A stretch of 64,000 nucleotides of DNA, taken from Mytilus trossulus. Lineage: Eukaryota. The position numbers and the translations under genes are program-made. Under the pieces are notes generated by a model. It saw nothing but the letters and a program-made list of their open reading frames with translations. It was not told the DNA's origin and searched no databases. The stretch lies in assembly GCF_036588685.1 (NCBI RefSeq), contig NC_086380.1, positions 10,405,347-10,469,346 of the forward strand, written 5' to 3'. Below are positions 10,329 to 18,247 of the stretch, in pieces; the stretch's first letter is position 1; the number at the start of each line of letters is the position of its first letter.

Positions 10329-12419
10329 TAGTAGAGCATTTCTTATAGAATTAACAGTATTTTATTAATAACCTTTTTACAGTGTGTTGTTACTAGCTCT
10401 GGGACAAATTATAAAAACATTATAGAAAAACTCAAAATATGGACAAATTTATTTTAAGGGGTCCTGAAATCTTTTGACAGCTTTCGAAATGCTTAGATTT
10501 TGTTTTTTCCTTTTTCAGCTCGACCAAATCTCATCTTTACTTCAAAATTCATGATTCTAATATTTTTACAGTGTAATTTCATCCCCCTCATTCCTAATTC
10601 AGGCATAAGAAATAAAGAAATATATGTGGACATTGAAATTCAAGGATTAGTAACTGTGTATCCCATCTTATACAATCAGAGAAAGATCAATATTGATTTT
10701 GGGGTCAATGTCACATGCAAATAATAAATTTAAATATTTGCATATTTAATTTGCCAATTATAACTCAGTTTGAGTAACCTGGCTTAAAAGGAGGATCTTT
10801 GTATCAAATTACAGGTGAATACTTTTATGATATATAAAATGTTAAAAATGAAATTTTACAAACTATGAAAATTATTGAAAATCACAGTTATATGGAAATT
10901 TTTCTATATGCCTCCTAATAATTTTGAGCTGATTTTTTTAAATATGTCAGACTACCATCATGTGTGTCCACTTGTGTTATTGAAATTGCAGATTTTTTGA
11001 GACTGGGCCATTTGCATCACTTTTCATATATTTTTATTTCTTTCATAATTTGTTTTCCCAGTTTCCACTGATTATTTCTGATTTATATATAAAAGCAACG
11101 AATACTGATATGACAGGAGATACATACAAAACAGGAGGTTTAAATTATTATATTAACTAAGTATTCAATAATTGTGATACACCACAGTATTGAGCATATA
11201 TAGCAAGAAATCTTGAATCATACATAATTGTACAATAGCAAGAAATCTTCAATTGAAAATTAATACAAATCTTTTAACTTCAATGGGATTAGCTTAAGGT
11301 CGTTCATACCTTGTAATACTATTTTAGATATTGGGCCCCACTTTTGAATTGGTCTACATCGATGTCCAAAAGTCCAAAATTAAACTTTGTTTGATTTCAA
11401 CTAAAATATTTTGTGTTTATTTTATATGCTGAATCTGATTTTGGATATCAGACCATACTATATAAATTAAATCATGTCAATGTCCTATTTCAAATTTTTA
11501 TGATCTTGTACAACATTTATTTTGTGTCAGAAACAAGGGTCCGGAAACGGTCATATTTGCCAGTCATGTCCTAAACTGAAACTATAATGTCCTAAACTTT
11601 CAATTGGGATTTAGGTCAAATTTTATTTTTCTACATTAATAATTTCGGTCATTTCGTTGAGATCGACTTTCAAAATCGCCATTTTGAACATATTTTTGTT
11701 TAGTTATCGATTTCCTGTAATTAAACTGCCACTCCAATAAAGTGTTATAATCCTGAGGGCCCTCCTAATAACTATATTAATGCCTCGGGGAGCTATTGGC
11801 TAATGATTGCTAATATCTTTACCTGTGTTTTTAATTCATTGTAATTCACACCTGGCAATTAATCACAAGGTCCAAACTATTATTATAAAGAAATAAAAAT
11901 TCCATACCAACTGGCTTCAATATTTAATTACTCAACATGTCAGACAATTGTCAATTATGATTTAATGATTAAACTTTTTTTTAATTTTGTAGAAAAAAAT
12001 ATTTTTTTACTTCTAACACACGTGTTTTGTTTACTATGTAATACGCATGCTTGAAATTCTCTTCCACAGATTAAGACAATAAATCGTAAATTTTAAATAA
12101 TTTCATCCTAAATAAAGCCAGTGCAACTACTTTAATTAATATTCTTACACTATTAAAGATAAAATATTAAAAAGCCGATGATTTCCTGTGATTTAGATAA
12201 ACAAAAACTAATTTGCCCATATTCTTCCATTCAATTTCCATCTGCGACATCGGTCACACGTGCACATCAAACAGATTCAACAGAGAAGTGTTTAGTTTTT
12301 TGAATAGCTTAATTGCTTTTCATATATATTGTGTATTTTATTGGAAATATATTCCCTTGTTTTGTTTAAATTTCTAAACAAATTATTTGTGTTTTTTTTG
12401 ACTAAAGTAATATTTATTA

Positions 12420-14281
12420 TGGACTTTAATTTGAATAGTCCGTATGTAAGTATTCCTGGTTCGGACTATCTCTTAGATGGGTCACTACCTTTAAGTCCCC
12501 CCCAAACTACCAGTACATTGACCGGAGTTTCGACAACGGTGTCTGGTAATGCTACCTATCCGACCCTTTCACAAGGTTCGGCCATGCATTTTGGGGGGGT
12601 ACCTACGTCAACTTCGGTGACTCATACTTTATCTAGGTCTGTTAATTCAGCGGGTACTATTAGTTCTGTCCCAGGTACAGCTATGGGCTTGAACTTGCCA
12701 GGTTCTAGACCCCCATTATCCTATTGTGGGTATATGCTTCCCAACACGGGCACACAACCTTTACCCTCATGGTCTCAGCCACCTTGGCCACAGTCTTACC
12801 CTTATGGTGGGTTTATGCCAAACCAACCTGGTTTTTGGCCTTATAGGGACAATTTCTATGGTCCCCCTTCTGGGGTAGCTACTGCACCACCTTTAGCTCC
12901 TGCTCTACCCGTAGCAGTATCTTTGACTTCTGCAGTAGCCCCTTCTACCACCGTACCTGACTCTCAAGCTTCTAGTTCTTCACATGGTACTCAGGTTTCT
13001 GATCATGCATCACCTTTGGATGGTTTACAGAAGTTACTTTTAGACTTTGGTGAGTCTTTCAAGGCAGAATTCCATACTCTATCCAGTCGTATGACTCTAC
13101 TGGAAAATAGAGTTTCTTCTCATCAACCTTCTCCAGCTAAGTCTGTAGAATGTGATGAGAGGGAGGATGACGAGCTTTCTGTTTCCCCTGGGAGTCATGA
13201 AAGGGCTTTCCTCACTGATGAGGATGTTGAAAGTTCTTCTTCTCCCAAGGTATCGAAGACGGCCCCTGAGCCTTCTTCTAAGTCAGCTCAACAACCTCCC
13301 ACCAAGGAGACTGAGGATCCTCCTTCCTTGAAGGATCTTAGGGATAAGGTGTATACCTTGATGAGGGATGAAGCACATATCCCTTTTCTCTCTCCTTCCA
13401 AGCCGAAGAAACCTTCTTCAACTTTTGAGGCTTCCTGTGGTATTTCTCAGGATAATGTGACTTCTCACAATTCTTTTCCTGAATCTGGCCATATGGCTTT
13501 TGCTTTACAATTTATTAATGAAGGTATCGCTAATTCTGCTAGTGAAAAGGTTTCTAATAACAATATCTCAGGATTTGGAATGTCATCCTTTACTGATCAG
13601 GTTAAGTACAAGGATTTTGATATCTTTGATTCTTCACTGGGTAGACTTGTTCCCAGTTGCGACAAATCTATGTCATCTTTATTGGGAAAAAAGCCAGTAG
13701 ATGGTCTTCGTCTCACTCAACCTGTTTGGTCAAAGACTGAGAATCTCCTTCGTAGTGCTTCTCAAGTTCTTGGCACAGCCGAACATTTTCTAGCTGCAAC
13801 CGGACATTTGCTTAACAGCGAAGATTCGGTTGTTCCAGCAGAAGTACGATCCTTCTTACTTCAACTGGATAAAGCTTTAGGTTCATCTCAGTTGCTTTTA
13901 ATGGGTTCTATTGCTAATTGCACCCTATCAAAAAGAGCAGAGTTTCTTGAAAACATTTCTATAGCTGAGCCTTTGAAAGATTCTTTACTGAAATCTCCAC
14001 TCTCTGACAAGATGTTTGGTTTACCCTTACAGCGGGTTCAAGAGGAACTCAGCAAAAATCCTCCTCCAGTCAAAGTTAGTGTACAAGTTACTAATGGCAA
14101 GAGGTCGGTTAATGCTACATCTAGTTCTAATAGTACTTCTGCTTCAGGTGGTCCTCCTTCTGCTAAGAAAAGGAAGAATAACTACGGCAAACCGCAGAAC
14201 AAACCCAATAACTCAGGAAAAAGCTCAGGTAAGCCTTCTGGTGGTTTTAAGGGTTCCAAGAAACCTGGGTCTAGTACCTAG
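12420..14281 (+). CDS. DIRS-like element Gag-like ORF. It is P/S/T-rich at the N-terminus and basic and K/G/S-rich at the C-terminus.
   Basis: The first ORF of the element, in the position expected for gag. It has no catalytic motifs, and the C-terminal basic tail resembles a nucleic-acid binding tail. Confidence 0.5.
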
Positions 14282-16400: not shown

Positions 16401-17317
16401 CAGACTTTCTAGTTTTTCTTTTTGAATCCAAAGGGTTATGTCCCTCTACTATTAAGGGATATAGATCAGCTATCTCAAGAACTATTCATATTTCTGGTGG
16501 CCCAGATTTTGGAATCAATGAACATATTTCTCTTTTGGTTCGTAGTTTTAGTCTTGAAAGACCAAGACAAAAAACTTTAGTTCCTAAGTGGGACCTTGGA
16601 CTAGTTTTATCCTTTTAAAAACTTCCTCCTTTTGAACCAGCAGAAACAATAGATTTAAGGTTTCTTTCCTATAAATGCTGTTTTCTTTTAGCTTTGGCTT
16701 CTGGACGGAGAAGGAGTGAAATCCATGCCTTCTCTATTTCTGATGCTTGCCTTCGATTTAACAGGGATAAATCTTCTGTTACTCTTTTAACGGATCCTGC
16801 TTTTTTGGCAAAGAATCAGATTCCAGATAAGGGTGCAGAACCAGTTGTGATTCCTGCACTCCCTAGCGATTCTATTTCTGTACTTTTATGTCCAGTAAGA
16901 ATCCTTTCTATTTATCTGGAAAGAACGTGTAGTTTACGTTCTGTTTCTAACTCAAGACTCTTTATTCCTATTAAAAAAGGAATCTCAGATCTTTCTGTTA
17001 AAACTATTCCTACTTGGATATGCAAATGCATATCTTTAGCTTATGGTTCTTCTAAGGCAGAACTTTTAAATAGTTTTAATGTTAAAGCTCATGATGTTAG
17101 GGGTATCTCTACATCCTGGGCTCTGTTTAACAGTGCATCTTTGGAAGAGGTACTGTCTGCAGGTTTCTGGAGAAATGAGAACTCTTTTATATCTCACTAC
17201 CTCCAATCTATGGCTACTTTTGCCGAGAGTTTATACTCTCTTGGACCTATAGTTTCAGCACAAAGATTGAACTTTCCTCCTGTTTCTTCTGTTACAGGGG
17301 ATTCAGCTTTACATTAG
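16160..17317 (+). CDS. DIRS-like element tyrosine recombinase, split over two frames (C-terminus of ORF 14390..16618 plus ORF 16694..17317).
   Basis: The N-terminal SAM-like or integrase-N domain is present (TKSVRDSTSIVYDAKWSIFSDWC...IKGYRSAISR). The catalytic region has LASGRRRSEIHAFS (the R box) and AHDVRGISTSWA...NSFISHYL (H-x-x-R ... Y). One frameshift lies between the parts. Confidence 0.7.
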
Positions 17318-18247
17318 ATTCTGTTACTCAGAATTTATGATGGTAACGTATTTATAGCTATAAAATATTCAAATTTTAAAGTAAATTTGGATTTTATTAG
17401 ATAAATACTTACCATCATAAATTATAAGTCCCACCCACCTCCCCTTCATCCCCTTTCCTTATGTTTTCTGTCTTGAGGAAATTGAATGGAAGAATATGGG
17501 CAAACAGGGGTATATGTCCGGACCAGTGAGAATACGTTTATTTTTAGTTGGGATTTTCCATCTGACCTATGACGCAATTGGGGTTACACTCAGAATTTAT
17601 GATGGTAAGTATTTATCTAATAAAATCCAAATTTACTTTAAAATTGAATATTTTGGCAATCATCTTTTGAAAAGGGGTATCAACTTTTAAGTTGTATGAA
17701 AATGACCGAAATTAGGTGAAAAAATTTCCGGATCCTTGGTCAGAAACCTATATTATGTCAAAAAGTGATTACAATCCAAATTCATGCAGACATTATCAAG
17801 TTTGAATATTGTGTTCAAACTTGCCTGGGCCACAACTGTTCAGGGTTGGACCTGCCTGCATCAGGCTGCCCTCGTCAAATTATTTTATATTGAGTAAAAA
17901 TGACTTATATCTAAAAATCATATACTTTTATATTTGTTAAAATAGTATTACTCCATACAAAATAAAGTTTTGGGTTAACAGTTATTGGTTCTTGAGTCAA
18001 TATTCAGTTTTTGGGTAGAAATTGTGGTACCCTCCTATAGTTCCTGACTTCTAAATCATTTGGTCTCTGGTGGGGTGTTTTACATTTGTCGTTTCAGGGA
18101 GTTATTTGTGTGCTATTAGGTATAGGTCTTGCTTATTGTGGAAGACTGTAAGGCGGCCTATAGATGATAACTTCTACATCATTTAAATTGGTCTCTCATG
18201 GCGAGTTGTCTCATTTGCAATCATACCATGTTTTCTTATCTTTATAG

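Follow-up and report, generated by a model that had tools for sequence, protein, structure and literature searches.

A left-truncated DIRS1-like retrotransposon copy in Mytilus trossulus, the ends of its family, and a recombinase frame that overlaps pol

Animal DIRS1-like elements, retrotransposons that carry a tyrosine recombinase (YR), were annotated under a common scheme in which a left inverted terminal repeat (lITR), left and right internal complementary regions (lICR and rICR), a right inverted terminal repeat (rITR), and a right extension (rE) follow in that order, the termini being NTT and the circular junction 3 bp long (Piednoel et al. 2011, PMC3266345). Annotated examples include XtDIRS3 of Xenopus, with TTT/TTT termini and an AAA junction, and LgDIRS2 of Lottia (PMC3266345). 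A methyltransferase-like (MT) domain is known in DIRS1-like elements (PMC3266345, PMC3537659, PMC3783388), and a “long open reading frame (ORF) overlap” is on record for them (PMC3266345, PMC6681497); the overlap occurs in half of the annotated elements and in none of the five from molluscs (Aplysia, Lottia) (PMC3266345). For DIRS-1 of Dictyostelium discoideum (Cappello et al. 1985), experiments have shown that retrotransposition requires the internal complementary region (ICR) (Malicki et al. 2020, PMC7192593). Here, we describe a DIRS1-like element in a 64,000-nt window of Mytilus trossulus DNA (contig NC_086380.1, positions 10,405,347 to 10,469,346 of the forward strand; coordinates below count from the first letter of this whole stretch). 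The window is AT-rich eukaryotic DNA (29-44% GC), and the ORF listing gives three long + strand frames between 12.2 and 17.7 kb.

We are highly confident that window 12212-17653 is one copy of a DIRS1-like YR retrotransposon whose Mytilus family, about 5,571 nt at full length, was recently active. The element is an ordinary member of an already known kind, and its classification is DIRS1-like, not Ngaro, PAT, or Crypton. Its limits come from comparison with five full copies, four Mytilus edulis loci (L001-L004) and one assembled contig (L009), which are 98.3-99.7% identical to the window copy and yield a consensus of 5,571 nt. Against each of the other copies, the window aligns from exactly 12212 to 17653-17656: on the right, the window copy and all five reach the equivalent of window 17653, and on the left the five reach 122 nt beyond the window copy. 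These outer 122 nt (TTTTATAGCTATAAAT...ACCCCTG) are the reverse complement of window 17505-~17626, and the left 150 nt of the full copies as a whole are the reverse complement of the right terminus at 94-96%. Because the other copies run 122 nt further left, as the reverse complement of the right end, the family left terminus is read from these alignments as 150 nt and the right terminus as 178 nt (window 17477-17653). The full-length order deduced from the aligned copies is a 150-nt left terminus, gag, pol, a YR frame overlapping all of pol, an ICR of ~104 nt, a 47-nt spacer, and the 178-nt right terminus. The parts of the window copy, all on the + strand, are as follows.

12212..12239, +: left inverted terminal repeat (ITR), reduced to its innermost 28 of 150 nt; similarity to the five full copies begins exactly at 12212
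12240..12418, +: 5' untranslated leader, between the ITR and the gag ATG
12419..14281, +: ORF in the gag position, 620 amino acids, with ATG at 12419 and TAG at 14279-14281 (ORF listing)
13992..16400, +: pol open frame, +1 relative to gag; a 794-amino-acid ORF spans 14016-16400
~14625-15107, +: reverse transcriptase (RT), RVT_1 match
~15444-15797, +: RNase H (RH), weak RT_RNaseH and RVT_3 matches
~15798-16397, +: putative MT-like domain, with a motif conserved in six lineages
14282..16216, +: overprinted “linker” of the long YR frame, in the gag frame, from the codon after the gag stop
16217..17317, +: tyrosine recombinase, with a core-binding (SAM-like) domain at ~16217-16555 and a catalytic domain at ~16556-17314, then a TAG stop
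16616..16618, +: private nonsense codon TAA in YR; TTA (Leu) in the other four aligned copies
17326..17365, +: left ICR, matching in reverse complement the opening 40 nt of the full left terminus, a stretch gone from the window copy
17363..17429, +: right ICR, matching in reverse complement the final ~65 nt of the right terminus; shares the AAA of the circular junction with the left ICR
17477..17653, +: right terminus, made up of conserved ITR (17477-17608), divergent ITR (~17609-17626), and right extension (~17627-17653), ending in ...GAATATTT

At the left ends (n = 5), the flank is followed by TTT TATAGCTATAAAT..., and the element start reads TTTTATAGC..., that is, TTT followed by TATAGC. 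At the right ends (n = 6), ...AAAATTTGAATA TTT precedes the flank, that is, ...GAATA followed by TTT, and similarity among the six copies stops right after GAATATTT. Among the five left and six right ends compared, no target-site duplication was found and the flanks were unrelated. The ICR (17326-17429) reads ACTCAG...GCTATA-AAA-TATTC...AAGT, with the A-run shared by its halves, and is itself an imperfect palindrome. Its left half matches the left end in reverse complement at 100% over 39-40 nt (consensus positions 1-39), and its right half, in copy L009, does the same for 61 nt of the right end. By alignment, then, joining the two ends (...GAATA-TTT-TATAGC...) gives a sequence of which the ICR is the exact reverse complement, with a TTT/AAA core. 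Part sizes in the family are ~18 nt for the divergent ITR, ~132 nt for the conserved ITR, ~28 nt for the right extension, and ~40 + ~61-65 nt for the ICRs, with TTT/TTT/AAA at the termini and junction. Under the model for DIRS-1, cDNA would be copied from a transcript without the extreme ends, these ends would be rebuilt on the ICR to give a circle, and the recombinase would insert the circle by crossover at the 3-bp TTT, which would leave no target-site duplication.

Set beside the animal DIRS1-like elements (PMC3266345), the Mytilus family has the same order of gag, pol (RT-RH, then a putative MT), and YR and the same lITR-lICR-rICR-rITR-rE layout; its part sizes and its 5.57-kb element lie inside the published ranges, its NTT termini are complementary to the 3-bp circular junction, and it leaves no target-site duplication. 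It departs from the five annotated mollusc elements (PMC3266345) in its overlap, which spans all of pol, whereas theirs is absent; the family adds a mollusc case of long ORF overlap. With Dictyostelium DIRS-1 it shares inverted, non-identical terminal repeats, YR and pol ORFs that overlap extensively, and an ICR exactly complementary to both extremities (33 + 55 nt in DIRS-1, ~40 + 61 nt in Mytilus). Unlike DIRS-1, it has repeats of 150/178 nt instead of ~330 nt, an ICR that lies 47 nt away from the right repeat, and an animal host, and the mussel family is known from sequence alone.

The encoded proteins agree with this placement. The pol ORF matched RVT_1 (E = 1.1e-18), RT_RNaseH (1.4e-3), and RVT_3 (3.2e-3) of Pfam, and a weak match to PF17917 relates the RT/RH to Gypsy-type RT. 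A domain of ~200 amino acids that follows the RNase H carries the motif DLFAT...YAFPP...APxWP..WF, invariant in six lineages, and by its sequence and position would correspond to the MT-like domain of DIRS1-like elements, adenine-methyltransferase-like and inactive-looking. The gag ORF has homologues in upstream ORFs of related elements, as in the tblastn gag match in L015. The YR makes up the C-terminal ~365 amino acids of the long frame, and its catalytic residues (R199, K233, H326, R329, W352, and Y362) were invariant in an alignment of six lineages with identity down to 31%. A YR profile matched Cre (E = 0.004) over the core-binding domain and the HxxR...W...Y segment, and among the relatives PF00589 was recognized in 4/6 and Phage_int_SAM_1 in 5/6. 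The best 31 Foldseek matches to a low-confidence AlphaFold model of the YR were all Cre/Tre (E down to 4.7e-6), followed by XerA. Single YR or MT sequences, searched against Pfam, NCBIfam, and PDB, yielded no useful match; profiles and the structure model were needed. RT/RH and YR were kept together in >70 related loci.

Mytilus edulis has proteins 98-99% identical to the pol protein, for which 1,333 homologues were found at E<=1e-10, many with PF00078. Divergence from the five-copy consensus is 0.83% for the window copy and 0.02% for L004. Because L004 is only 0.02% off consensus (copies 0.02-0.8%), the family is judged, from these divergences, to have been very recently active in Mytilus.

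A sequence-only reading of the window had taken the locus for a complete-looking DIRS element bounded by 28-bp inverted repeats at 12213-12240 and 17477-17504, with an extra inverted pair at its right end. The 28-nt repeat is real and perfect, with an E value of ~1e-7 by BLAST within the window, and is unlikely to have arisen by chance; its left arm lies one base away from the position first given, the pair being 12212-12239 / 17477-17504. It does not, however, end the element: the five copies run 122 nt past the left arm, they and the window copy run ~150 nt past the right arm at 94-99% identity, and the ICR is complementary to the outer ends and not to the 28-mer, which copy comparison places as the innermost 28 nt of the 150/178-nt ITRs. 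We consider it very improbable that the 28-bp repeats are the termini of a complete element. Nor is the copy complete, with 122 nt of the left ITR gone and a nonsense codon at 16616-16618. The 70-bp inverted pair, reported at 17350-17425 and 17598-17670, exists with other coordinates, 17362-17429 / 17588-17654 (95.6% over 68 nt), and to call the right end ICR-like was correct in spirit, the outer arm being the real right terminus and the inner arm the right ICR; window 17326-17376 is, in addition, an imperfect direct copy of 17588-17634, the sole direct repeat found in the element. The search for further copies that had been advised yielded the five full ones, and with them the exact ends TTT...TTT and the lack of a target-site duplication. 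For repeat libraries these ends matter, the true element being 5,571 nt long, TTT...TTT, with 150/178-nt ITRs.

The DIRS-type class itself was correctly recognized: RT/RH is present, the terminal repeats are inverted, and the ICR is a true one. A different YR element (Ngaro, PAT, or the DNA transposon Crypton) would also have a YR, and a long terminal repeat (LTR) retrotransposon might be suspected from an RT/RH related to Gypsy-type RT, yet RT/RH in the same unit as YR excludes Crypton, and terminal repeats that are inverted rather than split direct (A1...B1 A2 B2) exclude, together with the ICR, Ngaro and PAT. The putative MT-like domain and the long pol/YR overlap likewise tell against any such class, and repeat and domain searches of the element returned no LTRs, protease, or DDE integrase of the kind an LTR retrotransposon would carry. 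We attach almost no credence to a reassignment of this sort. What weighs against the DIRS1-like assignment is that no Pfam domain was recognizable in the gag ORF, that the MT domain matched Pfam Dam weakly (E = 0.013) and in 1/6 lineages and found no sequence match in PDB, and that, beyond the core-binding domain, confidence in the AlphaFold model is low.

Across pol, the YR frame of the window has 0 stops in 626 codons, compared with 47 in the third frame, and 2000 synonymous-codon permutations of pol gave a mean of 28.7 YR-frame stops and a minimum of 17. The stop-free overlap was also present in four other lineages (long YR ORFs 54%, 41%, and 28% identical to that of the window family in L005, L006, and L007) and, in a metagenome scan, in 77/80 related loci with pol identity of 34-99%; across the lineages tested, 0 stops stood against about 25-35 expected. 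We read the overlap from these comparisons as selected, a conserved family architecture and neither decay nor a private lesion. The overprinted amino-acid sequence is unconstrained, with only stops removed, because the 4-fold sites of overlapped pol diverge as fast as those elsewhere (54.8% for overlapped pol, 53.7% for gag, and 53.0% for non-overlapped YR, window family versus L005). The overprinted stretch is Ser-rich, and AlphaFold gave it a pLDDT of ~25 and no secondary structure. Three loci, L081, L083, and L085 (pol 35-36% identity), have 52-64 stops in the +2 frame and no long overlap; no recombinase was detectable within their contigs, hence they offer no contrast for the overlap, and they may be a sub-lineage with a different YR arrangement.

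Several earlier predictions for the coding region can be adjusted in this light. The gag ORF is present, with its start at 12419 instead of 12420, and RT-RNase H does lie within 14016-16400, the MT-like domain being additional. The recombinase described as being in two parts is there in frame 2 up to 17317, as a single frame with one private TTA>TAA change and no frameshift. To ask whether the shifted RT/RH and YR frames reflect decay or frameshifting was to mis-pose the question, the overlap being the architecture of the family; an alignment of copies, as had been suggested, showed the shifted overlapping frames to be shared and the stop codon to be private.

The relation of gag to the YR frame was followed in a census of 67 lineages, defined as clusters at 75% pol identity. 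In 48/67, gag and the ~1000-codon YR frame were the same frame with exactly one stop between them; gag was in the third frame in 0 lineages and in frame with pol in four or five, of which two or more are indel variants. The gag stop in the 48 lineages was TAG in 19, TGA in 29, and TAA in 0, compared with TAA at the end of 18/37 YR ORFs and 11/46 pol ORFs of the same elements (Fisher p = 1.5e-8 and p = 2e-4, respectively). The base after gag UGA was C in 19/29, and that after UAG was G (11) or C (7), including UAG-CAA-CCA; in the window family the context reads ...AGTACC-TAG-GTTCTTGCC.... Stop contexts such as these are known as the leakiest in eukaryotes and viruses. In the YR frame, the first Met comes at codon 295 in the window family and as late as 295-540 among the lineages. 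Most lineages have no pol-frame ATG ahead of the conserved pol match, and from the gag stop this frame is open upstream over a median of 71.5 codons (background 16, p = 2e-15). These comparisons point to a putative +1 frameshift site within the last ~70 gag codons. When 131 nt spanning the gag stop were folded for four lineages, no structure was significant (z of -0.03 to -1.65), and no recoding stimulator was supported.

On this pattern we tentatively suggest, as the simplest reading and at somewhat less than even confidence, that YR might be made as a Gag-linker-YR fusion by leaky readthrough of the gag stop through a disordered stretch of ~620 codons, and pol by +1 frameshift. The recombinase may under readthrough have no start codon of its own, and the long ORF overlap may be a translational conduit. 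Gammaretroviruses such as murine leukemia virus (MLV) read through a Gag-stop-Pol arrangement with UAG-G and a pseudoknot, and alphaviruses and tobamoviruses use the leaky stop contexts UGA-C / UAG-CAR-YYA. With respect to the expression hypothesis only, the mussel elements resemble viral readthrough in having a single TAG or TGA, and no TAA, between gag and a long downstream frame and in the bias of the next base, C after UGA and G or C after UAG. They differ from these viral systems in that the readthrough frame would be the recombinase, with pol in +1, and in that no significant downstream RNA structure was found. In a search whose reach excluded the older primary DIRS literature, no paper proposing gag-stop readthrough for YR was found. 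Of everything reported here, nothing but the comparative pattern seen at the gag stop could be new. The wider comparison offers a concrete and testable answer to an old descriptive question, namely the reason for so extensive a pol/YR overlap in many DIRS1-like elements and the way in which the recombinase is translated.

A second architecture of “Type B” loci, with gag in frame with pol, was considered and rejected: L015 owes this arrangement to a 1-nt deletion in a G-run, and L053 falls inside a Type A cluster. L008, L023/L024, and L074 are possible true variants with gag in frame with pol. In L008, gag shares its frame with pol instead of YR, and at 5974-5980, 13 nt before the gag TAG, the gag frame contains a canonical -1 slippery heptamer, G_GGT_TTT; a -1 shift there enters the 986-codon YR frame.

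As for the window copy itself, its long YR frame is open from 14282 to 17317 save the one TAA at 16616-16618, a codon that encodes Leu in the other four aligned copies. From those four, 54 substitutions distinguish the window copy, whose leader has lost 5 nt at 12270 and gained 1 nt at 12393. An in-frame deletion of 3 nt at 14156 in gag/pol leaves both frames open, and single-base indels lie in the spacer and the right extension. Its pol differs by 6 non-synonymous and 17 synonymous changes; therefore, part of the divergence arose while the lineage was under selection. Because there is no left end to pair with the left ICR, and because the recombinase is broken, the copy is dead, unable to move on its own. 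The missing 122 nt of the left ITR have no copy elsewhere in the 64-kb window, and the flanks of the truncated end did not match any other repeat that could explain the break.

The loss of the left end is most likely a deletion or rearrangement that followed insertion, a timing deduced from the right end of the window copy, which is exact. Were the truncation instead an assembly mis-join at the boundary of the inverted repeat, with a full-length element at the real locus, one might point to the Logan contigs L010 and L011, which start at consensus 121, compared with 123 for the window copy, so that unitigs break within 2 nt of the truncation, probably because the ITR is repeated in inverted orientation. 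Logan unitigs are built with k = 31. The window, however, runs on for 12 kb leftward without gaps, keeps 28 nt of the ITR and not the k-1 = 30 nt, and has substitutions and indels of its own on either side, which is what a real single locus should show, and we think a mis-join unlikely. The other course of events would place the truncation at integration, through incompletely restored cDNA or recombination at an internal TTT, instead of in a later deletion. The kept sequence does begin with TTT (12212-12214), the trinucleotide of the crossover core, and extrachromosomal DIRS-1 cDNA of Dictyostelium without about 300 nt of the left repeat has been described (PMC7192593); but TTT is common in DNA of 30% GC, the breakpoint is shared by none of the five other copies, and the right end is exact to the terminal TTT, which under the circle model would imply a complete junction, and hence a complete left end, at integration. 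Truncation at integration, too, seems improbable beside a deletion or rearrangement after insertion. The family's short-read Logan contigs L010-L014, of which L010 and L011 are the longest, all end at consensus 5271-5273; these ends, like the starts at 121, fall 30 nt into the ITR/ICR repeats and look like breaks of the assembly. The idea that the contig starts 2 nt from the truncation mark a transcript or cDNA end was also entertained and rejected, k-mer unitig breaks at inverted repeats being the better explanation.

The copy probably lies nested within an intron of ~11.3 kb, as judged from a donor at 6968 (...GAAAAT/GTGAGT) and an acceptor at 18247 (ttatctttatag/AACTCT) that are both in phase 0 and join in frame. 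The putative intron is 11,280 nt long, and the DIRS copy, in sense orientation, makes up 48% of it. The element had been offered as the reason for an 11-kb intron; the splice signals and phase fit such an intron, and the element accounts for about half. A homologue search with the RS-rich host ORF at 21525-23483 gave no matches, and because of this the intron claim rests on the splice signals only. For the window itself, this amounts to routine annotation, in which a dead copy of 5.4 kb accounts for roughly half the length of a long intron. The exon-like segments, all in phase 0 and with good splice signals, are listed here.

6821-6967, 18248-18475, and 18616-~18700, +: exon-like segments, phase 0

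The exon-like segment at 18248-18475 is extremely acidic (DEDEDEEDDDDDED...), and that at 18616 encodes a stretch resembling the histone H3 alpha-N region; this is the H3-mimic host gene named in the sequence-only reading. At 7957-8946 (+), the same putative intron holds an ORF of 329 amino acids that weakly matches zf-RVT (E = 1e-3) and is probably the C-terminal end of a LINE-type ORF2. Short interspersed repeats at window 6482-6635, 11321-11534, 17739-17888, and 18076-18246 are matched at 68-92% by several stretches of the unrelated Mytilus loci L001-L004 and by window 38006-38144, and are probably MITE- or SINE-like. Farther to the left, a ubiquitin domain (E = 1e-18) is encoded at 461-751 (+), and a 635-amino-acid, Q-rich ORF at 2274-4181 (+) starts with the ubiquitin C-terminal motif LRLRGG and contains tandem repeats of ~23 amino acids (NVAYGGLFGSEPVSVRAKGSPDT).

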